Virus record (IMG/VR): IMGVR_UViG_3300021255_002417
Coordinates: 1 to 64,000 of that record
Origin: a virus
Taxonomy: Duplodnaviria > Caudoviricetes
Length of the DNA stretch: 64,000 nucleotides
Direction: 5' to 3' (one strand)
The position numbers were made by a program, and so were the translations under genes. How positions within the stretch are numbered: the stretch's first letter is position 1; the number at the start of each line of letters is the position of its first letter. The notes beneath the pieces were generated by a model. The model ran no database searches. It was not told where the DNA came from and saw nothing but the letters and a program-made list of their open reading frames with translations. Positions 4,296 to 28,298 of this stretch are shown here, in pieces.

Positions 4296-5069
4296 TTATG
4301 AACCCAATGAACCATGATATGTACATGTGCCATTACGATTTTCATATAAGTCATCCCACAAAGCATCCCAATTAAATGAATTTACAGCATCAGCATTCGC
4401 AAAGTCAACTGTTCTCGAATAATTCGAATATCGTGCACCATATACATTATCAGTCATAGTATATTTATGTGGAATAACAGCTGTAAGTTTACCATTACAA
4501 AATGACAGATTTACATTATAATCTTTAATTGGAATTATTCCACTAAACCCAATTTTTGTCTTTTTAATATCAGCACAATTAATTGCATTCGCAACAATGT
4601 CAACCATAGGATCAACATCAGCAAAGAATAATTTAACACTATCGCCAAGCGTTCTAGCAAACATCATTGCTTTTGTACCAAGCATAAATAGAGTTCTATT
4701 CTCATCTTGAGCCATATAACCCATTGCGCATGTTATATTTGCATTTGGATGTACATCAGATAACAATATATCATTGTTATAAAATTTAATATTCCAAACA
4801 ATCGCATAGTCATGTCCACTTTCAACAAAACAATTAAGTGGACAATTTACAATAAGATCTTTTAAATTAAATTTCCATACAGAGGCTATAATTTTATTAT
4901 TATCTTTTGTAATTATTGAAGAATAATCACTATATGCAAGTTCAACATCTTTTGGACATTTATCAAGAATAGCTTGCGTAATTTTTGTAAGTATATTTTT
5001 TGGAGATTCAATATTACCATTTACCATATTAATGGTAAATTTATTGCTTTCAAAAGAAATTATACTCAT
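4296..5069 (-). CDS. Hypothetical protein
   Basis: 257-aa ORF with GGAGA RBS. Confidence 0.7.
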   Translation of the reverse strand: MSIISFESNKFTINMVNGNIESPKNILTKITQAILDKCPKDVELAYSDYSSIITKDNNKIIASVWKFNLKDLIVNCPLNCFVESGHDYAIVWNIKFYNNDILLSDVHPNANITCAMGYMAQDENRTLFMLGTKAMMFARTLGDSVKLFFADVDPMVDIVANAINCADIKKTKIGFSGIIPIKDYNVNLSFCNGKLTAVIPHKYTMTDNVYGARYSNYSRTVDFANADAVNSFNWDALWDDLYENRNGTCTYHGSLGS

Positions 5070-5452: not shown

Positions 5453-5857
5453 TTATTCAAAGCAAGTATATTTACCATTTGCTTTTACAATGCGACCATC
5501 TCCAATTCCTGAACGTACAATCTGTGCAGCATATTTCGGCATACGCCATTGCAGTTCATAAATATCATCAGATGATAGCTTTTCGTGATCACAAATACGT
5601 TTCGCAGTTTGACTAAGGAATTTTGCATCAGACTTATTAAAACCACGTTTATTGCTATAAACAGTGCATTCTGCAGCTACTTCATCAGACAGCTGATTTT
5701 TAAATACAATCATTAAACCTTTAACAGCAAACTTTGAGTCATTACCAAGTCTCTCGCGATACATATCAACGAGGACAGCTCTTGATTTAATGTTTTGATT
5801 CATAATTGTCATATCACAGTCTCCATTTGGTTTAATGGATGAAGCCATTTCATCCAT
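5453..5857 (-). CDS. Conserved phage hypothetical protein; true start probably near 5810, downstream of the leader hairpin
   Basis: KGLMIVFKNQLSDE...SNKRGFNKSDAKFLS resembles a widespread phage family; GGAGA RBS precedes MTIM. Confidence 0.6.
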   Translation of the reverse strand: MDEMASSIKPNGDCDMTIMNQNIKSRAVLVDMYRERLGNDSKFAVKGLMIVFKNQLSDEVAAECTVYSNKRGFNKSDAKFLSQTAKRICDHEKLSSDDIYELQWRMPKYAAQIVRSGIGDGRIVKANGKYTCFE

Positions 5858-6123
5858 TCATTTTATGAGCTTATTATGCCATAGTCTCATGAACTTGTCA
5901 ACCAATTTTTTAATCTGGTTGAAATTTTTTCAATTGACTGTCAACACTCAAATGGTCTGTTCAACCATTCGATAGGCATATAATACTGTGATTCAGCTAC
6001 CTTGTCAACTAAAAATTTCAAAAATTTTTGCATCATATTGTATCGAAATAAAGCCACTTTTGCATCAGTTTTGCATCAAAAACTAAAGCCAATTATTATA
6101 GCACAGAATTTCCAGCATGTCAA
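5834..6123 (-). promoter_or_regulatory. Array of three tandem sigma70-type promoters with leader hairpins
   Basis: Minus strand TTGACA-N17-CATAAT (5901/5878), -TATTAT (6008/5985), -TATAAT (6123/6100); hairpins at 5834-5860 and 5948-5973. Confidence 0.85.
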
Positions 6124-6285: not shown

Positions 6286-6693
6286 CTACTCTTTCTTTAG
6301 ATGATTATATTCTGGTTTATTAGTTAAATCTTTTTTAAGAGTATACAGCAATTCTTTTGACCATGATCTAAGTTCATTTAATCTTTGTGATATATAAGGC
6401 GCTTTTGATTCATCATTTGCGACTAATACTAAAAATGATTCACCTTTATTTAAAAGCATATTAAATACATCTTCATGTGGAATAGTTCTATTATTTTCAA
6501 CAACTAGTTCATTGTATTTTTTCAATGTATCAACAATTGACATACATAATAACAAAGCTGCTGCAGTTCTAAGCTCATGCTTACTATCAGCTTCCTTTAA
6601 CTTTTTATATATTTTTTCAATAAAAACAATCTCAAGCTCAGTATCATCAAGTTCTTTAAAAATATCTACAGTGTTTTCTGTGCTTTCACTCAT
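6286..6693 (-). CDS. Hypothetical protein
   Basis: 135-aa ORF, TAGGA RBS. Confidence 0.65.
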   Translation of the reverse strand: MSESTENTVDIFKELDDTELEIVFIEKIYKKLKEADSKHELRTAAALLLCMSIVDTLKKYNELVVENNRTIPHEDVFNMLLNKGESFLVLVANDESKAPYISQRLNELRSWSKELLYTLKKDLTNKPEYNHLKKE

Positions 6694-7483: not shown

Positions 7484-8464
7484 TTAAATCGATTGAATCG
7501 ATCTTGATTTAAATTTTATTATTCTATCAATGAAAAAGTTTATAAGTGATGAGTCAAAATTGTAATTAAACAAAATATCAAAAATATTCATTTTCATAAT
7601 ATTTTTAACATATTGCATATTGTCAATATGATCTAACAAATCATATAATACATATGTTTGTAACTCTGCCCAATATAATATTGTTTGTAAATCTAATGTC
7701 CCTTCTAATTGCCTAAACTCAAAATGAAGTTTATTACATTCACCGTCATACGAAAATTCACAAAATCTTGAACTTAACTTCTGATATTTATTTCGTGGCC
7801 ATGGTTTAGTAGGATGACAATATTTATTGCGACGCCTTGATGTTGGTACAATTGGATCAAATACTGTTTTTTCCATAACAGAATATGCTGATAATAAATC
7901 ACATATACTACCACGGAAAATATTATTATGCTTAAAGCCAATATGAATATGTGTACCACATGATTTATTTACTTCTGCATGTAAATACTTTTTGCAATAT
8001 TCAATTACGGTTGTAATAGTTTTAATATCGTCTGCATTAAATAAATTAAGCTTTGGTGATGATAACTCATATCCAAATGGCTCTTTTAGAGATGAATCAT
8101 TTATATTTATTGAGCCATCCTTTCCAAGAATCCATGACGTGCCATCATTGTGCGTATATACTCCCGAACGAAAATATTTTTCTTTTAAAAGTCTAAACAT
8201 TTCTATATCAAATGCAGAAATGTCGTACTGGTCTTCACTTCCAACAAATTCAAATTCAATACCAAATGTAATATCAGGTAGTTTAATATCATGCAGAATA
8301 TGATAATCGATAGCTGATATTAATTTCTCATATAATGCACGAGACATTTTTGAATCGACACTTTGGTCTTTTAATTGTAATATTGCTGAAACTTTTGTTT
8401 CATTTTTTAGTGTTATTCCATATAGTGCTAATGATTTTGCATGTGACTCATTTATTGTTGGCAT
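7484..8464 (-). CDS. Putative amidoligase (COOH-NH2 ligase)
   Basis: TFGIEFEF, DGS, GYELSSP, NKSCGTHIHIG, EFRQLEGT. Confidence 0.88.
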   Translation of the reverse strand: MPTINESHAKSLALYGITLKNETKVSAILQLKDQSVDSKMSRALYEKLISAIDYHILHDIKLPDITFGIEFEFVGSEDQYDISAFDIEMFRLLKEKYFRSGVYTHNDGTSWILGKDGSININDSSLKEPFGYELSSPKLNLFNADDIKTITTVIEYCKKYLHAEVNKSCGTHIHIGFKHNNIFRGSICDLLSAYSVMEKTVFDPIVPTSRRRNKYCHPTKPWPRNKYQKLSSRFCEFSYDGECNKLHFEFRQLEGTLDLQTILYWAELQTYVLYDLLDHIDNMQYVKNIMKMNIFDILFNYNFDSSLINFFIDRIIKFKSRSIQSI

Positions 8465-20418: not shown

Positions 20419-22338
20419 TTAACGTAATTCTAGTACATCAAACAAAGTTGTAGATGTAAGCTTACTTGGTGAAAGATCAATTGAGACATCTTTCGAGAAC
20501 TCATGTGTTACTATACCGCCAGCAAGCTCAATAAATTCTTTAATAGTCATCATAGAATCACACTTTGCAATAGATGTATTTAATACATTTTGCATAAGCT
20601 GTTTGTTAGGAATTCTATGACCACCACAAATATCGCCACCATACAAAATAAATGACTTATCTTTGTAAAATCCAATAACACCTTCACTTTCATGTACTTT
20701 AAGATTGAGTTTAGGTGCTATTGCATTTTTAGGATTTACCACTGCTGAAACCATATCGTTTGATTTGCTTTTAAAGTTGCATTCATTTGTAATGTCTTTT
20801 GTAAAAAGTAAATCAAAAGGAACTTCTCCAGATGTGTTATAGATATTTACACTAAGAATATAAGTATCTTTTACTTTTGATGATATTCTAAATGCTTCAA
20901 CAGCACCGTATGGTTTTGGTGCGTCTGTCATATCACCAGAGAATAAAATATCATTCTCTGATGATCTATAATTAGAATTCCACCCAAAAGAATTATTTAC
21001 TGAATTTAAATGAAAGTCTAGATCTATACGACATGTATCACTATTAAACCAATGTCCGCCAATACAAATTGCATTAGCATCTTTTGGAAGTTTGACTTTA
21101 GTGCCGTATGGTAACACATCACTCATCTGCTTTTCTGAAACAGGCACTGCATATTCAATTATGTTTGGTATATAAAATACTTTTCCTGAATACGTATTAT
21201 TTAATATTGATTTTAGCTGATTTGTACAAATATCATTTAACCACAATAAATTAGTAAGACGAACAACATTCACATTATTGTCTTCATCCTCTATCTTAAC
21301 GAAGACCTTACCATTTCTAATGTTATATATATGATCTTTTGCAACAGTCTCATATCTTGCAAAGTTTATAAGTTTAACAAGTTCTCTAATACTTGCTTTT
21401 TTAATAACATTTACAGCATCATCCTTCTTGCCAAGTGCAAGTAAGTTCATTAGATTTGAAACTGTAAATCCAGTAACTGGTTTGTGATTAGTATTAGCAA
21501 GTCTTCTTATCTTATTTATCTTGCTTGCAAGATTTTTATTATTTTTAAATGCTAAAAACAATGGCTTAAATCTAAAGAATGATTCTGACAGCTTTGTTAA
21601 ATCAGCATGCTCGAACATACTTTCAGCAAATAGATTTGTTGAAAAAGACTTTAATAATTCTATTGTCTTTTTATCTTTTACAATAGAAGCAATATTTCCA
21701 TTGCTTGCTTTATATATAGCTAATCTTAAAAAGTCCTGACTATTTGTAGGTACTATATTATGTATATCACAATATATAGCTTTAACTTCAAAAGACTTTA
21801 TTGAATCTACATCAATATCATTTACATACCGTAAAAGACGTGTTATATAATCGACTGAATCTTTATGTGGTGCACTAATATTGCAAATATAGTTTGTTAT
21901 CTCATGCTTAAATTCATCATCAGTTAATATATGTACAACAGTAAATGCTTCTATTGAAGGTGTGCTGTCTAAATTAATAAGAACCTTCTCTACAGGAATA
22001 TAATTGACAGAATTAAGTCCAATAGACTCCATCCCATAAGTACTAAAATAATGAACTATCTGTTCTGCAACAAGCTGTTCAATAGAAGCAGTTGCTACTT
22101 TATCCCAACTCTTATGAAATGAAGATGTCCATTCAACTGGTTTAATACCTAATGTGCTTATAATTAAATCAGCTAATTCAGTATCTATATTTTCTACTAT
22201 TCCTGAATTGCTAATAGGTACAACACCATACTTAACAAGTTTAGAAAATGAAACTGTGTAAGTGCTACAAGGATTCTTAACTGCGTGAAGTAACTTTAAT
22301 GAAGCTATCTGTAAACTATTATCTTTAATATTAATCAT
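20419..22338 (-). CDS. Large phage protein with a C-terminal TerD-like region
   Basis: RIDLDFH...GWNSNYR...LFSGDMTDAPKPYGAVE resembles TerD-related phage and bacterial proteins. Confidence 0.6.
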   Translation of the reverse strand: MINIKDNSLQIASLKLLHAVKNPCSTYTVSFSKLVKYGVVPISNSGIVENIDTELADLIISTLGIKPVEWTSSFHKSWDKVATASIEQLVAEQIVHYFSTYGMESIGLNSVNYIPVEKVLINLDSTPSIEAFTVVHILTDDEFKHEITNYICNISAPHKDSVDYITRLLRYVNDIDVDSIKSFEVKAIYCDIHNIVPTNSQDFLRLAIYKASNGNIASIVKDKKTIELLKSFSTNLFAESMFEHADLTKLSESFFRFKPLFLAFKNNKNLASKINKIRRLANTNHKPVTGFTVSNLMNLLALGKKDDAVNVIKKASIRELVKLINFARYETVAKDHIYNIRNGKVFVKIEDEDNNVNVVRLTNLLWLNDICTNQLKSILNNTYSGKVFYIPNIIEYAVPVSEKQMSDVLPYGTKVKLPKDANAICIGGHWFNSDTCRIDLDFHLNSVNNSFGWNSNYRSSENDILFSGDMTDAPKPYGAVEAFRISSKVKDTYILSVNIYNTSGEVPFDLLFTKDITNECNFKSKSNDMVSAVVNPKNAIAPKLNLKVHESEGVIGFYKDKSFILYGGDICGGHRIPNKQLMQNVLNTSIAKCDSMMTIKEFIELAGGIVTHEFSKDVSIDLSPSKLTSTTLFDVLELR

Positions 22339-22403
22339 ACTAATCTCCCATGCTGATTTTGCAAATATATTCGCGACTTAATAGGAATACTTATGAAACA
22401 AAA

Positions 22404-22560
22404 ACCTAGTAGCAATACCATTCTTGCGATAGCTAAAATCTTATAACCTAAAGAAGAAAAGGAAGCTACTTTGCAAGAATAATATCACCACTAGGTATAA
22501 TTAAATTTCTACGAGAGCTAATATTTAAGCAAGATATAAAGGAAGCTCTTTTGCAGAAAT
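22404..22560 (-). ncRNA. Tandem conserved hairpin motif upstream of the TerD-like gene
   Basis: Two units of stem-AAA/C-stem with loops starting UCCUUU; the two copies covary. Confidence 0.55.
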
Positions 22561-22561
22561 A

Positions 22562-22634
22562 TGCCTCAAGAAAGATTCGAACTTCCGACCGCCGCATTAC
22601 AGGTGCGATGCTCTACCAACTGAGCTATTGAGGC
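22562..22634 (-). tRNA. tRNA-Thr(UGU), C33 variant
   Basis: GCCTCAA/TTGAGGC acceptor, anticodon arm TCGCA-CCTGTAA-TGCGG, T loop TTCGAAT. Confidence 0.85.
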
Positions 22635-22637
22635 AAA

Positions 22638-22722
22638 CGGAGAAAATAGGATTCGAACCTATAATACATTTACATGTATGACGGATTAGCAATCCGCTGC
22701 GATACCATTACGCCATTTCTCC
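22638..22722 (-). tRNA. tRNA-Ser(GCU)
   Basis: GGAGAAA/TTTCTCC acceptor, GCGGA-TTGCTAA-TCCGT, long variable arm, G73. Confidence 0.92.
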
Positions 22723-22818
22723 AAATAGCAAATTATATCATCACGACATTATTTGCTATAAACACTAAACACAACAATATAAGGAAGGTTCTACATAATA
22801 AAGCATTATAAATATAAT

Positions 22819-22852
22819 TGTCAACAGAGAGACTAGAACTCTCAAGCCTTTC
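22819..22852 (-). pseudogene. 3' remnant of a Leu-type tRNA gene
   Basis: GAAAGGCTT-GAGAG-TTCTAGT-CTCTC-TGTTGAC-A; acceptor strand complementary to GTCAACA at 23977. Confidence 0.7.
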
Positions 22853-23746
22853 CTACTTACGAATAAAGCATTTTGAATAAAATTCATGAAAGTGTTTTCT
22901 AATATAAGCCCCAGCTTTCTGTGAAGAAATACCAAAAATATTTGCTATCTTCTCAACCCAACCAAACTTTGAAAAATCAATATCTGATTCTAATATCAAA
23001 TTCCATCTAAAACTTTTTAGAGATTCATCCACTTTATTTCTATAGTGCTTATTGATTGTATGCACTTCTTTAAGTGGCTTACTATTTACTTTCTTACTAT
23101 GTAAAGCTTTGCTAAATGCCTGTTCGTCATTTATTTCATAAAAACAATCAGCAGGCTCATCATACCTAAAGAACTTACATCCTATTGTAGATATAATAAA
23201 GTTTTGTTTTACAAGATCATGCTGTTTTACTTTCTCTTTATGGTGACGAGCTTCATCATATTCAAATGCAATATTTAGTTCTCTGTCATAGCCATCAAGA
23301 AAATAAGGACCTACTGTAATCTCACCACCGTTCAATGCATGTTGTAAATGCCAACCCATCTTTTCATTTAAGCTATCAATGTACTCACACGCTTTATGAT
23401 TAAAATTGGCACTATGACCAACACGCTTCTTAGCAGCAAATGATAATTTAATTCGTGTCTCATCTGAAATTGTCTGTACAGGTTTGTCTATATGATTTGG
23501 GTTGCTTTTACAATATTTAATATGATTAGTTAACCCAGACTTTTTCGATGAAACATAACCGCAAAACTCGCACTTAAAATAACAACATGTATTTTGAGGA
23601 ACAGTTCTACCTAATGAATCTGTATGCAGTGAAAGTTTAGCTTCACATGATTTATAATGTAAATATAAATCATTTCTTGTTGATAACTCTGTATTACAAT
23701 ACTTACAAACCCATTTATATGACCTATTTGATTTACAATTACACAT
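22853..23746 (-). CDS. Freestanding endonuclease: C2H2-like Zn fingers, PD-(D/E)XK (Vsr/DUF559-like) domain, FSKFGWV C-terminal domain
   Basis: CKYC..H..C, CEFC..H..C, YFLDGYDRELNIAFEYDEARHH; ATG at 23746 follows AAAGGAGA. Confidence 0.75.
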   Translation of the reverse strand: MCNCKSNRSYKWVCKYCNTELSTRNDLYLHYKSCEAKLSLHTDSLGRTVPQNTCCYFKCEFCGYVSSKKSGLTNHIKYCKSNPNHIDKPVQTISDETRIKLSFAAKKRVGHSANFNHKACEYIDSLNEKMGWHLQHALNGGEITVGPYFLDGYDRELNIAFEYDEARHHKEKVKQHDLVKQNFIISTIGCKFFRYDEPADCFYEINDEQAFSKALHSKKVNSKPLKEVHTINKHYRNKVDESLKSFRWNLILESDIDFSKFGWVEKIANIFGISSQKAGAYIRKHFHEFYSKCFIRK

Positions 23747-23856
23747 AATCAATCTCCTTTTAACTTTATTAAAGAGTTACTGCAATAACTCTAATATGTG
23801 TGGTTAGATAGGTTGGAGATTCCTATCAACTGGTTGCAGCCAGCTGTCCCACTAAT
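23747..23856 (-). ncRNA. Structured leader RNA, copy 1
   Basis: Nearly identical to 25220..25331 with compensatory changes. Confidence 0.8.
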
Positions 23857-23859
23857 AAA

Positions 23860-23943
23860 TACCCAGAGAGGGAGTCGAACCCTCAAGTCCATAGGGGCAG
23901 TAGCTTCTAAAGCTACCCTCTTTACCAGTTTGAGTATCTGGGC
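23860..23943 (-). tRNA. tRNA-Leu(UAG)
   Basis: GCCCAGA/TCTGGGT acceptor, GTAGC-TTTAGAA-GCTAC, variable arm. Confidence 0.9.
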
Positions 23944-23950
23944 AAATAAC

Positions 23951-23977
23951 TGCGTTTACCAATTTCATCATGTTGAC
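23951..23977 (-). pseudogene. 5' remnant of a Leu-type tRNA gene
   Basis: GTCAACA-TG-ATGAAATTGGTAAAC; pairs with the 3' remnant at 22819..22852. Confidence 0.7.
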
Positions 23978-23982
23978 ATAAA

Positions 23983-24055
23983 TTGTGAGTATTGGATTCG
24001 AACCAATTCTACGAGTGTATGAGGCTCGTGTACTAACCTATTATACTAACTCACA
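23983..24055 (-). tRNA. tRNA with CAU anticodon (elongator Met or Ile2)
   Basis: TGTGAGT/ACTCACA acceptor, CGAGC-CTCATAC-ACTCG, T loop TTCGAAT. Confidence 0.8.
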
Positions 24056-24060
24056 TTAAA

Positions 24061-24092
24061 TCTAGGTAGTGGGATTTGAACCTGCGATCCTT
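24061..24092 (-). pseudogene. 3' remnant of a Pro-like tRNA gene overlapping the endonuclease C-terminus
   Basis: GCAGG-TTCAAAT-CCCAC-TACCTAG-A; acceptor strand pairs with CTAGGTG at 25431. Confidence 0.65.
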
Positions 24093-25219
24093 CTATATAC
24101 ATAATTTATAAGATCTGTTGAATTAACAACCTTATAAATTTGACGACGAGTTAAACCTGTAACTTTCGATACCTTTTCAACCCATCCAAATTTAGAAAGA
24201 TCTACGTCACTATTGAGTATTGTTTCCTTTCTAAAATTCATTTCTTCATGTGAAATTTTATTAGCGTTTAGACGACCTTTAGTGTCTAATAAACCTTTCT
24301 TTCCTGCTTCACTAATATGAAGCGCATGATCAAGTTCTTTTTGCTTTTTCAAATCATACTTAATAATAGCTTCTTCACTAATAGGTTGTATATCACATCC
24401 AATCTTATCGTGAAAGTAAATCTCAAGCTGTCTCTCAACACCGTCTTTTGGTATAATTCTTAATGTAGTAAAACCTAATGCATCAGCCTCTATGTCTTTT
24501 AATCTGTCTGTGTCTATAGATTTACTATGCCAATATTCACCATCTATTTCTATAATAAGATTAAATTGTGGTACAAAGAAATCAACATACCTTCTAAAAG
24601 AATCAGAAACAATCAGCTTATTATGTTCAATACATAATTGATGGCTAATTAACCAATCGTAGGCAACTTGCTCTGGATATGTCATTTTACTTTTATTACA
24701 AGAAACTCTTGCGTTTGGATGTTTTTCTGGATGTTCAAGATAAAGCTTTTTCTTTCTATCAGATTGAGCTTTTCTTCTTTCTTCAGTCCAAGGTAAATGA
24801 TGATCAGCCTGTTTTATTTTACCAGATCTAACATTCTCTGAGTATCTTTCAGCTTGTTGCTTAATAATATCACATGTATCTTTAGTTAAACCTTTGTTCC
24901 ATGCATGCTTACCACAATATTCAGCATGAGCTGACAGTTTATGTTCTTGTAATTCTCGTCTTGTTACGAATACTTCTTCACAATGACAACATTGCCAACC
25001 ATCTTTTGTAGTTATAAATCTATTTGGATTTAATCTGCAATGCTTTTCATGTACTGACAAGGCACATGGTCTATCAAAATTTTTATGACAAAACGCACAT
25101 TCTAATTTATCATAATTAGTTATAGAGTTATCATTTTCTTTACACCACTTAATATGGTTTGAATATGAAGACTTTAAATTAAACGATTTACCACATAGAC
25201 TACATATAAATTCACACAT
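24062..25219 (-). CDS. Freestanding endonuclease: three C2H2-like Zn fingers, DUF559-like PD-(D/E)XK domain, LSKFGWV C-terminal domain
   Basis: TYPEQVAYDWL, YVDFFVPQFNLIIEIDGEYWHS; paralog of 22853..23746. Confidence 0.8.
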   Translation of the reverse strand: MCEFICSLCGKSFNLKSSYSNHIKWCKENDNSITNYDKLECAFCHKNFDRPCALSVHEKHCRLNPNRFITTKDGWQCCHCEEVFVTRRELQEHKLSAHAEYCGKHAWNKGLTKDTCDIIKQQAERYSENVRSGKIKQADHHLPWTEERRKAQSDRKKKLYLEHPEKHPNARVSCNKSKMTYPEQVAYDWLISHQLCIEHNKLIVSDSFRRYVDFFVPQFNLIIEIDGEYWHSKSIDTDRLKDIEADALGFTTLRIIPKDGVERQLEIYFHDKIGCDIQPISEEAIIKYDLKKQKELDHALHISEAGKKGLLDTKGRLNANKISHEEMNFRKETILNSDVDLSKFGWVEKVSKVTGLTRRQIYKVVNSTDLINYVYRRIAGSNPTT

Positions 25220-25331
25220 TCTAACATCTCCTTTTAGCTTTATTAAAGAGTTACGGCAATAACTCTAAAGAAATAGTGGTTAGACAGATTGGAGATTTCT
25301 GTCAACTGGTTGCCGCCAGCTGTCCCACTAA
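25220..25331 (-). ncRNA. Structured leader RNA, copy 2
   Basis: TAGTGG/CCACTA outer stem, CAGCTGG/CCAGTTG, GACAGA/TCTGTC, AGAGTTA/TAACTCT. Confidence 0.8.
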
Positions 25332-25355
25332 GATTTAATAAATATATTCAATAAA

Positions 25356-25393
25356 TCGGAATAGAGAGTGTTACCCGGTTACACCACACTCAG
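25356..25393 (-). pseudogene. Truncated tRNA 5' half
   Basis: CTGAGTG-TG-GTGT-AACCGGGTA-ACAC-T-CTCTA-TTCCGA, then AT-rich sequence. Confidence 0.55.
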
Positions 25394-25409
25394 TAAATAT
25401 AAGGAACTC

Positions 25410-25431
25410 TACCAGGTTTCGCCACACCTAG
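25410..25431 (-). pseudogene. 5' remnant of a Pro-like tRNA gene
   Basis: CTAGGTG-TG-GCGAAACCTGGTA. Confidence 0.6.
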
Positions 25432-25441
25432 ATAAGATGTA

Positions 25442-25509
25442 TTCACTCGAACTTGAACAGAGATAGATAGATTAAGAGTCTACTATTCTACATATTAAAT
25501 TACGAGTAC
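25442..25509 (-). pseudogene. Degenerate tRNA-Lys(CUU)
   Basis: Intact anticodon arm GTAGA-CTCTTAA-TCTAT; 3' strand of the T stem is missing. Confidence 0.55.
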
Positions 25510-25515
25510 ATAAAA

Positions 25516-25586
25516 TGGAGAATATCAGAATTGAACTGATGTCTATAGAATGCAAATCTATTGTTCTCCCGCTGAACTAATTCCCC
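25516..25586 (-). tRNA. tRNA-Ala(UGC)
   Basis: GGGGAAT/ATTCTCC with G3:U70, ATAGA-TTTGCAT-TCTAT. Confidence 0.9.
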
Positions 25587-25587
25587 A

Positions 25588-25661
25588 TGGTAGCGGTAGC
25601 CTGAATCGCACAGGCTCTTGTAGGGTATGAACCTACCGTGCTACTTTTACACTCTACCGCA
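25588..25661 (-). tRNA. tRNA-Met(CAU), initiator-like, encoded CCA
   Basis: 1:72 mismatch (T:T), GTAGG-TTCATAC-CCTAC, non-canonical T loop TGCGATT, ends ACCA. Confidence 0.7.
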
Positions 25662-25666
25662 ATAAA

Positions 25667-25974
25667 TAGCGAAGGTGAGAATTGAACTCACGACCAATGG
25701 TTTATCTTACTACTCTATATTTCTATAGCCACTTTATACAAAGTGTTGTAGTCTGGACTATCTCTTGTGCATATTCAAAAATGAACTTAGCATTGCCCTA
25801 TATAGTCTCTGCACATTTATAAAAGAAATTAGTTTTCTTTTAATTTAGCTCAAGATTGTCTACAGCATTACCTGTTTAGAGTTTCCTTGAATTAGGGGCA
25901 TTCTACTTTAAGCGTTTCCACTTAAGCACTCATATTATTAAAGACCACTGCTCTGACCGCTGAGCTACTCCGCT
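25667..25974 (-). tRNA. tRNA-Ile(UAU) split by a group I intron (exons 25974-25941 and 25705-25667)
   Basis: Joined exons give AGCGGAG/CTTCGCT acceptor and GTGGT-CTTATAA-ACCAT anticodon arm. Confidence 0.85.
25706..25940 (-). mobile_element. Group I intron (IC3-like, 235 nt, no ORF)
   Basis: P AATTCAAGGAAAC, Q AATCTTGAGC, R GTGCAGAGACT, S GATAGTCC, terminal G; exon CUU pairs with internal GAG (U.G at the splice site), as in trnL(UAA) introns. Confidence 0.88.
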
Positions 25975-25980
25975 ATAAAT

Positions 25981-26052
25981 ATACCATGAAAGATTCGAAC
26001 TTCCGACCGCCGCATTACAGGTGCGATGCTCTACCAACTGAGCTATTGAGGC
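25981..26052 (-). pseudogene. Chimeric second copy of tRNA-Thr(UGU) with a non-matching acceptor 3' strand
   Basis: Identical to 22570..22634 up to the T stem, then ATGGTAT instead of TTGAGGC. Confidence 0.7.
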
Positions 26053-26077
26053 AAACGGAGAAAATAGGATTCGAACC
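25988..26077. repeat. 90-bp exact direct repeat of 22570..22659
   Basis: Both ends fall in or next to T arms (TTCGAA). Confidence 0.9.
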
Positions 26078-26140
26078 CTCAAGGGAATAAATCCCGACAA
26101 ATTTTAAGTCTGTTTCCTTTACCAGTTTGGACATTCTCGC
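26056..26140 (-). pseudogene. Chimeric tRNA-Leu(UAA) carrying the 3' end of tRNA-Ser
   Basis: Leu body ACAGA-CTTAAAA-TTTGT; T stem GAGGG/CCTAT and acceptor GCGAGAA/TTTCTCC are mismatched. Confidence 0.7.
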
Positions 26141-26187
26141 AAATAAACTATATATTTTATTCAATTATCAAAGAACACATTTATAAA

Positions 26188-26275
26188 TAGCCGGGGTAGG
26201 ATTCGAACCTACAACGTTTCATTATTATGTCACGGATTTACAGTCCGCTGTCTTCACCATTCGACACACCCGGCT
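26188..26275 (-). tRNA. tRNA-Tyr(GUA)
   Basis: AGCCGGG/CCCGGCT, GCGGA-CTGTAAA-TCCGT, long variable arm. Confidence 0.9.
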
Positions 26276-26396
26276 TTGAGAGAATTAAATTTTATCTCGC
26301 GATAATATTTAATTCATATTTATTATATGAATAGAATTCAAAAATTTATTTAACTATTTTATGCAATTATTTTCATAAATAAATTTAATTATGAAA

Positions 26397-26469
26397 CAGG
26401 TCACAGAGGATTCGAACCTCTATCTTCGGTTTTGGAGACCAAAATGCTAAACCATTACACCAGCAACCT
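26397..26469 (-). tRNA. tRNA-Trp(CCA)
   Basis: AGGTTGC/GTGACCT, TTGGT-CTCCAAA-ACCGA, G73. Confidence 0.9.
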
Positions 26470-26472
26470 AAA

Positions 26473-26545
26473 TTCCAGAGAGCTGATTTGAACAGCTATC
26501 ACTGAGGTCAAAACCCAGTGTCCTAACCTATTGAACGACTCCGGA
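26473..26545 (-). tRNA. tRNA-Gln(UUG)
   Basis: TCCGGAG/CTCTGGA, CTGGG-TTTTGAC-CTCAG, T loop TTCAAAT. Confidence 0.8.
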
Positions 26546-26564
26546 ATATAATATACATAGATAT

Positions 26565-28298
26565 TTAAGAATTTTTAATTTTATTTTTTGAATATTGGCG
26601 ATAAGCTTTTACCCAATCAGGATTAAATCCATCTAATGTAATTTTTGTTTTAAAATCACTTGTTGGCACATAATCCTTGTATAACTTTGTAATTGTATTT
26701 GCATCTTCATGTGTAAGAAGACTTAAATCAATTCCACCAATATATTTATCATTTTCTTTAATGACAAATACTTTACGAGGTCTTGTACCATTAGATGATG
26801 TATATGTAAATTCTCTAACCATTTAAACTCCATGATTTATATGTTATTTAGATATAATTAAATATACACTGTTTAAAAGCTCTTTACAACTTTTATTTCC
26901 AAATTTCACATCCCTTTTGTGCGAGCAAATCGCATTCTATATTATTACGACCTTTACCAAAGTTAAACCAATCAGTAATTGACATACTATGATGATTATT
27001 ACAATTGCAGTCTCGTTCATATTGTAGCATACAAAGATCAGGATGTGACACTTTAAAATATCGATTTTTTCCGGTGTCAAGGTTCATGTGTACAAGAATG
27101 TAAAACTTATCAGTATATTTTCCAGTCTCTACAAATCGATTCCTGAACTCACGTCGTGAAATATTATTATTTATCTTGTCACCATTCTTTTTGCTTGTAC
27201 TACAACAGAATATAACCTCACGCAAACCATAATCAGTATTTATATAAAACTTCTTTTCGTCATGTGGTGTTGTAACACTGATAATTACATCATTATGTGA
27301 CTTTGCAGCATTAAGTGCAAAATCAACACCAAGTTTATGGATCTGCTGTGCTGTTAAATTTTCATTACTACAATTTGTCATAATTGTCACCTCAATTATT
27401 AAGCTTTCTTAGAAGCAGGAACATATTGAATTGTCTCAATAGGGACATATTCTTCTGCATAACATGGACAATCCATGTCAACAGAACTTGAACATTCATC
27501 AAAGCATTGTGCTATGCCATTAATCCCAACATAACCATCATCACATTTATAAACATTTGTTGAAAGTTCATACCAGCGATGGCGATCTACATTAATATCT
27601 GTTGCTACACATTGCAAATCAAAGTTAGTATCAAAATCAAATAATGACCAATATTTATTTGAATTAACTTTTGCAATTACATCGGCTACTTTCATTATAA
27701 AGCTCCACTATGATAATGTATTAATAGCATTTTCAATGCGTTTAAGCTCAGCATCTATAAACTTTTCTCGTTCACGATTATATGAATCTTTGCATTGTTC
27801 ATAGGTCTGTCTATGCTGTTCCATCATATCGTACAATCGTTTACCTTCAGCAGATTCATTAAATCGTTTAATAGCATCTTTTGAAACTTTTGCGCGAATA
27901 AACGTATACAAATCAACTGTATCTTCAAATGCGCCACCATAACAATCTACACATCTCTGTGAGCCTGTTGCGCTATGATGTTTACAATAATCGCACTTGC
28001 CATGACGTGCATTATATTCATCAAGATATCCCATATACAATACCTCTATATACTATTAGAAGTCTAAATCTTTAACAGGTTCAGCTGATTCAGTTACATA
28101 AGTTCCATCGTTAAGACAATAGCCTTTCCATAGTGTTACAAAACCATGAAATTTACTTTTATTATCAAGACACTTATTTACTTTTTTAATAGTTTGAACA
28201 GCTATACGAGCATCATGTATGTTATCAAACTCTTCATTCCAACCTTCATATAATGAATTTACAGGACGAACAAAATACTTTATCATTGTGTACTCCAT
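26565..28298 (-). other. Block of hypothetical CDS (26565..26822, 26893..27390, 27399..27695, 27708..28040, 28056..28298)
   Basis: Co-oriented ORFs with GGAG/GAGG RBSs; 27399 is a paralog of 5073, and 27708 matches the C-terminus of 53641. Confidence 0.65.

Follow-up and report, generated by a model that had tools for sequence, protein, structure and literature searches.

The free-standing homing endonuclease SegB lies in the tRNA cluster of phages T4 and T6, and its association with tRNAs is widespread (PMC2330249, PMC13096335). SegB recognises the T-psi-C motif and cleaves within tRNA genes; it homes along with neighbouring tRNAs and causes the array to be rearranged and amplified (PMC2330249, PMC13096335). 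The EDxHD family of Vsr-like homing endonucleases became known through "fractured" protein genes and a recA intron (PMC2677866, PMC3239194), and the splitting of genes by Vsr-like endonuclease genes is known (PMC2677866). Here we describe two endonuclease cassettes in the tRNA array of a Caudoviricetes virus (IMG/VR record IMGVR_UViG_3300021255_002417). The window, by which we mean the whole stretch of 64,000 nucleotides (nt) that was analysed, makes up most of this 72.5-kb record, and the record is estimated to be about one-third complete. From sequence comparisons we consider it probable, at roughly 80%, that both are cassettes of free-standing Vsr-like (EDxHD) homing endonucleases with N-terminal C2H2-type fingers, inserted in tRNA genes of the array.

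Two endonuclease cassettes between tRNA halves

The tRNA array occupies positions 26546-22561 on the minus strand, and both cassettes lie within it with all of their elements on that strand. ARAGORN called eight tRNAs in the array, and Rfam added several beyond the ARAGORN set. Each cassette consists, in order, of an outer 5' tRNA half, a cargo tRNA, a structured leader, an endonuclease open reading frame (ORF) and an outer 3' half (Table 1). This anatomy and its positions had been proposed in an initial annotation of the window, and a minus-strand reading bore them out to the base. A megablast search of cultured phage genomes with the array returned only short, tRNA-sized matches and no close isolate. 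Relatives were collected via the 639-amino-acid protein that adjoins the array, and the fetched loci and contigs used in our comparisons are designated by L-numbers (L031, L051, etc.).

Table 1. Coordinates of the elements of the two cassettes in the window
Cassette	Feature	Position	Strand	Description
1	5' remnant, resident tRNA-Leu(UAG)	23951..23977	-	GTCAACA acceptor, TG, type-II D arm; tRNA positions ~1-26
1	Spacer GTTATT	23945..23950	-	junction identical in L051, absent from L031
1	Cargo tRNA-Leu(UAG), intact	23859..23944	-	ARAGORN; Rfam tRNA 55.6 bits
1	Leader 1	23747..23858	-	112 nt; structured element
1	ORF1, 297 amino acids	22853..23746	-	predicted zinc-finger Vsr-like endonuclease gene
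1	3' remnant, resident tRNA-Leu(UAG)	22819..22852	-	variable-arm end, T arm, TGTTGAC, discriminator A; directly after ORF1 stop
2	5' remnant, outer tRNA	25408..25431	-	CTAGGTG acceptor, 5' strand of D stem, D loop; read directly
2	Decayed cargo tRNA	25356..25393	-	5' part of tRNA-Pro(UGG) at 25393-25366 (CTGAGTG acceptor and D arm) fused to 3' piece at 25365-25356
2	Leader 2	25220..25331	-	same structured element as leader 1
2	ORF2, 385 amino acids	24062..25219	-	predicted zinc-finger Vsr-like endonuclease gene
2	3' remnant	24061..24088	-	short variable loop, T arm GCAGG/CCCAC, TACCTAG, discriminator A; read directly

A resident tRNA-Leu(UAG) gene broken by cassette 1

An empty allele of the cassette 1 site was found in the related locus L031, where an intact and uninterrupted tRNA-Leu(UAG) gene (7512-7595) contains no cassette. 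The flanking 639-amino-acid protein is 84% identical between the two phages and the upstream flank is identical at 72 of 74 nt. The L031 array is compact, with the order Gln-Trp-Pro-Leu(UAG)-Ser-Arg, and has no endonuclease genes. Alignment to this gene (L031:7513-7539) showed that the 5' remnant of cassette 1 is identical at 24 of 27 positions, and the 3' remnant matches the other end (L031:7562-7595) at ~30 of 34 positions; the spacer that follows the 3' remnant also resembles the corresponding L031 spacer. Because both halves match one intact tRNA-Leu(UAG) gene, a chance resemblance is excluded. Missing from both halves are positions ~27-47, which comprise the anticodon arm and the beginning of the variable arm, and in place of this lost middle stand GTTATT, a tRNA-Leu(UAG) of another lineage, the leader and ORF1. 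These alignments show that the outer halves come from the opposite ends of what was once the phage's tRNA-Leu(UAG) gene. Since both remnants match the L031 gene and foreign material lies between them, the resident gene was disrupted by an insertion, and the inserted material included a tRNA of the same isoacceptor.

The cargo is the only tRNA-Leu(UAG) found in the window. Its alignment score to the L031 tRNA-Leu(UAG) is just 24 over 86 nt, and its 5' 32 nt resemble the Leu(CAG) gene of L049; by its sequence, the cargo is of a different lineage from the split resident gene. The GTTATT spacer probably came in with the cassette.

The acceptor strands of the two halves pair at 7/7 positions (GTCAACA/TGTTGAC), and compared with L031 the acceptor stem contains one compensatory change from G-C to A-T, which may predate the insertion. 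Elsewhere the halves have diverged in ways that a working tRNA would not be expected to tolerate. The D stem of the 5' remnant is mismatched (ATG/CGC, versus GTG/CAC in L031; A10/C25), and position 57 in the T loop of the 3' remnant, universally a purine in tRNAs, is a T.

The complementary acceptor strands might suggest that the outer halves are still a working gene, either as a tRNA with a very large intron or as a split tRNA rejoined as RNA, and a true group I intron does lie in a tRNA-Ile(UAU) gene 1.7 kb away in the same array. The decisive point against such a gene is that, compared with the intact L031 gene, the anticodon arm is wholly missing from the combined halves. In addition, a broad Rfam pass over 22000-27000 gave no Intron_gpI match at E<=1, although this pass also missed the true intron at 25735-25950. 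We regard a surviving gene as next to impossible.

Cassette 2 and its decayed cargo

The acceptor strands of cassette 2, CTAGGTG (25431) and TACCTAG, also pair 7/7, with one G-T pair, so that the pairing claimed for both cassettes was confirmed. With the positions set by the landmarks of D loop and T arm, seven pairs would arise by chance with a probability of ~1e-3, and it is this figure, together with four further matched cases in other phages (see below), that makes the case for a single gene as the source of both halves. The outer 5' remnant has its best likeness, a weak one, in phage tRNA-Pro(UGG) genes, and the 3' remnant occurs once in the 72.5-kb record. Only 3 of the 5 pairs of its T stem can form.

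The cargo of cassette 2 is a fragment, which matches an intact tRNA-Pro(UGG) of L051 (raw 5625-5697) at 33 of 33 positions and sits at the same place as that gene. The fused 3' piece, TCTATTCCGA, is the 3' end of a Pro-type tRNA and, together with the spacer that follows, matches L046. As the cargo tRNA-Pro is intact at the same place in L051, cassette 2 descends from a module of tRNA-Pro, leader and endonuclease whose cargo has since decayed. The junction at the 5' side (GGTAGA/GTTCCTTA) is also common to L051, where it stands behind the 5' remnant of a different tRNA.

At the other end, the 3' remnant encodes the last nine codons of ORF2 and contains its stop codon. The L051 ortholog of ORF2 (78% identical) ends right after the residues VYRR, which argues that the C-terminal extension of ORF2 arose by fusion to the remnant.

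Just 5' of cassette 2 lies an AT-rich and odd tRNA-like sequence (25438-25509, minus strand), which scored 39.9 bits with the Rfam tRNA model and was not called by ARAGORN. It is possibly another decaying tRNA.

Scars and tRNA association among relatives

Related cassettes were compared for similar scars. When complementary 7-mers within 700 nt were searched for automatically, chance matches were numerous; matched halves were therefore counted only if a D arm starts 2 nt after the 7-mer. Four further cassettes had acceptor halves that pair 7/7: L042 (GTTTCGG/CCGAAAC), L046 (tRNA-Pro halves, CGGAGTA/TACTCCG, with just ~11 nt around the anticodon loop gone), L006 (CTCGGTG/TACCGAG) and L065. The initial annotation had proposed testing whether homologs are consistently flanked by complementary tRNA halves; in these four they are, and several other relatives have one remnant or none. 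Remnants of the 5' type stand directly upstream of the ORF in L005, L060-L062 and L064-L066, and in L038, L044, L049, L050 and L051 the stop codon is immediately followed by a remnant made up of T arm and acceptor strand. The adjoining intact tRNA is usually of the same isoacceptor as the remnant, as in cassette 1 (Leu), L006 (Pro), L044 (Ser), L050 (Ile UAU) and L065 (Arg). Breakpoints fall in the anticodon loop in L005 and L006 (TTTG/TATAAATA) and in L046, and the whole anticodon arm has been removed in cassette 1, cassette 2 and L042.

The three closest ORF2 homologs in IMG/VR (40-42% identity) are all in tRNA arrays, whereas the more distant ones mostly are not. For ORF1, all five fetched contigs with close homologs (5/5) are phage tRNA arrays. 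A profile of the ORF1 family retrieved 80 IMG/VR loci, 28 of which have a tRNA within 1.5 kb, including all of the 15 closest; near these 15, the tRNAs mostly adjoin the ORF directly. Among the neighbours, tRNA-Leu genes are the commonest. Related phages are also polymorphic for the presence of the cassettes, as L031 lacks them and L051 has different ones.

The paired acceptor strands had led to the proposal that the tRNA ends form a tmRNA-like (transfer-messenger RNA) cap, or a minihelix, around the endonuclease mRNA, which RNase P or 3'-end enzymes would process and selection would keep. The 7/7 pairing in both cassettes of the window and in the four relatives would fit such a cap, as would the T-arm and acceptor remnants right after the stop codon, which are very common in the group, and the compensatory change in the acceptor stem of cassette 1, although this change may be older than the insertion. 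Other features speak against the cap. Neither cassette has an anticodon arm or a replacement helix; the D stem of cassette 1 contains the A/C mismatch and its T loop the T at position 57; and the T stem of cassette 2 forms only 3 of its 5 pairs. An intact tRNA-Leu separates the 5' half of cassette 1 from the mRNA, and normal maturation of this tRNA by RNase P and the 3'-end enzymes would cut the half off. In L051 the identical 5' junction of cassette 1 is followed by the 3' remnant of a different tRNA, without complementarity, and remnants are absent from both sides in L034, L039, L041 and L045, while the 5' remnant of L005 has no matching 3' strand. The ORFs are full-length proteins with their own Shine-Dalgarno (SD) element and ATG, ARAGORN found no tmRNA, and Rfam only an 18-nt fragment of 13.8 bits elsewhere. 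We therefore abandoned the processed cap as very improbable and prefer to read the halves as the remains of genes split by endonuclease cassettes.

Three relatives showed further peculiarities. In L005 (1240-1350, 1930-2015) and L006 (375-445, 1000-1090), which contain the closest ORF2 homologs, the tRNA-Pro 5' half ends at TTTG and is fused to a T4-type late promoter, TATAAATA, and the endonuclease stop codon is formed by U8-A9-G10 of the next intact tRNA-Pro. The ORF2 homolog of L004 (3690-4630) is broken solely by several in-frame TAGs where relatives have sense codons, which could reflect TAG recoding in that phage or a pseudogene. The L004 contig carries a tmRNA gene.

Zinc-finger proteins with a Vsr-like nuclease core

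ORF1 and ORF2 are, by sequence, distant paralogs. They share 23% identity (BLASTP E=1e-12), and profiles of the two families align over their full length (hhalign, 99.9%, E=3.7e-35). ORF1 has two C2H2-type zinc fingers (Pfam zf-C2H2, 28.1 bits, above cutoff), followed by a divergent Vsr-like nuclease core at ~113-206 and a C-terminal helical FGWVEK domain. ORF2 has C2H2 zinc fingers (Pfam zf-C2H2, 27.7 bits, above cutoff), a NUMOD-like linker, a Vsr-like/EDxHD core (EIDGEYWH...D) that matches Pfam DUF559 (DUF559/Vsr; 23.9 bits against a cutoff of 20.6), and again the FGWVEK domain. The paralogy, the fingers and the common tail claimed for the two proteins were thus supported by BLASTP, Pfam and profile-profile comparison, and sequence comparison bore out the tail as a domain common to both.

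Single-sequence searches of PDB returned eukaryotic zinc fingers only, and profiles were needed for nuclease matches. The ORF2-family profile matched the catalytic domain of I-Bth0305I (3r3p_A, E=1.1e-10) and 3hrl_A (E=5.5e-10). For ORF1 we used an AlphaFold2 (AF2) model with a mean predicted local distance difference test score (pLDDT) of 85.5. When the whole model was searched with Foldseek, no match was better than E=0.01. With VIA-align, the model region ~113-206 aligned to Vsr (1cw0_A, Z 7.5, root-mean-square deviation [rmsd] 2.6, 85 aligned residues), to the DUF559 protein 3hrl_A (Z 7.1) and to I-Bth0305I (3r3p_B, Z 6.7, rmsd 3.0, 78 aligned), and a RAP-domain protein gave Z 10.1; these Z values are middling.

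Candidate catalytic residues were read from family conservation. In ORF2, the motif EIDGEYWH is followed by D..D, and across 11 relatives E224 and G227 are invariant and D238 nearly so. The ORF1 family has an invariant F-E-Y-D-E..H and a downstream D (E162, E165, H168, D177). No Pfam match to GIY-YIG was obtained for ORF1 or ORF2 at E<=1. With ORF2 as the query, tblastn of phage genomes yielded nothing beyond distant "Hef-like" endonucleases, which came from Campylobacter phage CP30A and a single uncultured phage. We conclude from the profiles and the model that ORF1 and ORF2 are predicted homing endonucleases of the Vsr-like type (EDxHD, as in I-Bth0305I), a family that has already been described. 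Of the proposal that they represent a mobile, tRNA-associated endonuclease family with a fold unlike that of SegB, the mobile, tRNA-associated nature was supported and the difference in fold, which is Vsr-like and not GIY-YIG, was upheld; the family itself is not new.

A portable structured leader

Leaders 1 and 2 are ~93% identical, compared with only 23% for the two ORFs. The predicted fold is a three-way junction with the loop UCUCC, then a hairpin, then the ribosome-binding site. The UCUCC loop is invariant and complementary to the GGAG(A/G) ribosome-binding site, i.e., it is an anti-SD sequence. Across 13 leaders, every pair cell of the three-way junction was paired (232/232, 100%), whereas slid controls gave 17-49%, and 8 of 18 leader pairs showed compensatory changes. 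The fourth hairpin of the leader was left out of this count since two sequence types align out of register there.

An exact leader pattern had no match in IMG/VR. A pattern that tolerates covariation found nine more contigs (one viral and eight metagenome loci), and a variant is present in L051. In all 13 cassettes a tRNA 3' end lies 8-35 nt before the leader, and at least eight different zinc-finger/DUF559 ORFs are found behind it. From its sequence, the leader looks like a portable translational throttle. In L051, the upstream junction of cassette 1 is joined to a leader of the cassette 2 type and a third ORF, and this mixture suggests that the leader is also a site of ORF exchange.

A proposed mechanism and points that weigh against it

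In the mechanism that we propose, the endonuclease would cleave those tRNA alleles that are sensitive to it, at the anticodon stem-loop or close by. The DNA of this stem-loop forms a 17-bp inverted repeat and would be a fitting target for a dimeric EDxHD enzyme; I-Bth0305I, a dimer, cleaves a 14-bp pseudopalindrome beside the site of its insertion (PMC3239194). Double-strand-break repair would then copy the cassette in. By sitting inside its own target the cassette would destroy that target and so gain immunity, and the cargo tRNA would make up for the destroyed gene; because the cargo would replace the lost function, no intron or intein would be needed. First entry into a new tRNA gene would require illegitimate break repair at microhomologies, and illegitimate break repair has been documented in T4 (PMC2988022). 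The T arm was considered as the cleavage target by analogy with SegB; since the scars that are most precise (L005, L006 and L046) have their breaks in the anticodon stem-loop, the stem-loop was preferred.

At the level of expression, the ORF would be transcribed with the tRNA operon, the 5' end of its mRNA would be set by processing of the upstream tRNA, and the anti-SD loop of the leader would throttle translation. The remnants would have no function as RNA, and their 7/7 pairing would be inherited from the original tRNA. The tRNA halves are best read as insertion scars that possibly also act as short homology arms for the next round of homing.

Several observations weigh against this reading. 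The putative cut site is deduced from the scars alone. An intact homolog of the outer tRNA of cassette 2 was found neither in the IMG/VR pattern scan nor in the L031 and L043 records, its own record or the 341 tRNAs of the fetched loci; moreover, the cargo tRNA of this cassette is broken, so no compensation is visible there. Of the 80 loci retrieved with the ORF1-family profile, 52, which are distant relatives that match the nuclease core only, have no tRNA within 1.5 kb, and tRNA targeting would therefore be a property of this clade and not of the whole family. Finally, the L051 cassettes are bounded by halves of different tRNAs, so that recombination between tRNA genes, independent of endonuclease cleavage, also shapes these arrays.

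This last point leads to the question of whether the halves merely arose when tRNA genes recombined with one another at conserved microhomologies in the D and T loops, as a general process, with the endonucleases as passengers that neither caused nor target the breaks. Besides the mixed halves of L051, the junction GGTAGA/GTTCCTTA behind two different 5' remnants speaks for such a process, as does a 93-nt, 99% identical repeat that runs from T arm to T arm and makes chimeric tRNAs in the same array. So too do the tRNA alleles, for which identity between the window and L031 is 65-87%, against 97% for the 74 nt that precede the array. Against it, the same endonuclease clade lies beside remnants of the same isoacceptor in many unrelated contigs, and breakpoints cluster in the anticodon stem-loop and not only in D or T loops; and L031, which is without endonuclease genes, has a tidy array. 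On balance we consider it unlikely that the endonucleases are mere passengers. The two processes would not be mutually exclusive, and cuts by SegB can drive microhomology rearrangement of tRNA arrays (PMC13096335).

Other features of the array

The tRNA alleles of the window and L031 appear to turn over much faster than the surrounding DNA. The intact orthologous tRNAs (26396-26546 and 22637-22723) are 65% (Gln), 80% (Trp) and 72% (Ser) identical. At the end of the array, the final tRNA (22561-22635, compared with L031:7701-7776) has the same acceptor, D and T arms in the two phages and a different anticodon arm, being Thr(UGU) in the window and Arg(UCU) in L031; this looks like a swap of the anticodon arm only. 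The two copies of the 93-nt direct repeat lie at 22567-22659 and 25985-26077, each reaching from one tRNA's T arm to that of the following tRNA. The upstream copy generates chimeras: a tRNA-Leu(UAA) body (26140-26057) ends in the 3' end of a tRNA-Ser(GCU), and its acceptor stem is therefore non-pairing (compare L051).

The tRNA-Ile(UAU) gene (25663-25963, minus strand) contains a group I intron of ~270 nt after U34. A focused Rfam search identified it with the Intron_gpI model at 25735-25950 (61 bits, gathering threshold 50, E=2.8e-15). The same intron-bearing gene is present in L034, L047 and L050, where it lies directly 5' of a cassette with leader and endonuclease. In this phage group, a motif that resembles a promoter, AA(T/C)GTCGTGA and then (N)ATATAAT, recurs 5' of tRNA genes and cassettes, in the window at ~22745-22775 (minus strand) and in L034 at 4785-4800, 6005-6030 and 6440-6465.

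Implications for phage tRNA arrays

Phage tRNA arrays are now regarded as counter-defence assets. Splitting by endonucleases, accompanied by a spare tRNA, seems to be a common and little-described route by which the tRNA gene set of phages is turned over. We tentatively suggest, at somewhat less than even odds, that the cassettes belong to a general and hitherto undescribed class of "self-compensating" tRNA-gene homing elements, which insert in their own target, use the tRNA halves as homology arms, and carry a cleavage-resistant spare tRNA of the same isoacceptor instead of relying on splicing. If so, such elements would be a main force behind the turnover of alleles, the exchange of anticodon arms and the formation of chimeras in the tRNA arrays of phages, and the portable anti-SD leader would be a shared expression and recombination module.

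The two cassettes represent a second nuclease family, unrelated to SegB, that lives in tRNA arrays with a different mode of operation. Paying for insertion in a tRNA gene with a carried tRNA would reach, without a ribozyme or intein, the same end as intron or intein splicing. The scars would be natural footprints that predict tRNA anticodon stem-loop targets for a little-studied family of zinc-finger endonucleases, and they may explain why the tRNA alleles of sister phages diverge (65-87% identical) relative to the DNA around them (97%).

Comparison with described systems

Our literature search found no paper on endonuclease cassettes that split a tRNA gene while carrying a replacement. Besides a further nuclease family, the present case contributes two cassettes in one array, the uninterrupted allele in the related phage L031 and the shared structured leader.

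SegB is the nearest functional analogue. As with SegB, free-standing endonuclease genes are embedded in a phage tRNA array. For the cassettes, tRNA genes are a putative target deduced from the scars. SegB, however, is a GIY-YIG enzyme, whereas these cassettes encode predicted zinc-finger Vsr-like proteins. SegB lies between intact tRNA genes, and the cassettes lie inside a tRNA gene and retain both of its dead halves. Recognition by SegB involves the T-psi-C motif, while the scars point to the anticodon stem-loop. A cargo tRNA of the same isoacceptor and a conserved structured leader accompany the ORF here, unlike in SegB.

With I-Bth0305I (PMC3239194) and the fractured genes of Dassa et al. 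2009 (PMC2677866), the predicted proteins share the nuclease core and a modular DNA-binding N-terminal region, although C2H2-type zinc fingers take the place of the two NUMOD2 motifs of I-Bth0305I. Those EDxHD systems likewise include free-standing copies that break a host gene in two and control regions with hairpins that are carried along (PMC2677866, PMC3239194). The hosts known for them code for proteins and are rescued by group I introns or split inteins; the gene invaded here is one for a tRNA, nothing rejoins its parts, and a spare tRNA is supplied.

I-Ssp6803I (named in PMC2677866), a PD-(D/E)XK enzyme of a group I intron in a cyanobacterial tRNA-fMet gene, also combines a restriction-enzyme fold with an element in the anticodon loop of a tRNA gene. 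It is encoded in the intron, and the tRNA is restored by splicing; around ORF1 and ORF2 there is no ribozyme match, and the two proteins belong to very different branches of the fold. In archaeal-type split or permuted tRNA genes the pieces make up a complete tRNA, unlike the pieces of cassette 1 when taken together.

Finally, the cassettes resemble the T4-type genes in pieces and intronless homing (PMC2988022), in which a free-standing gene invades another gene and immunity is provided by a disrupted or variant target. Insertion at a new site there occurs by illegitimate break repair at microhomologies, as we propose here. In the T4-type cases, however, the protein halves reassemble or the endonuclease lies beside its target, whereas here an RNA gene was destroyed and a cargo copy took its place.

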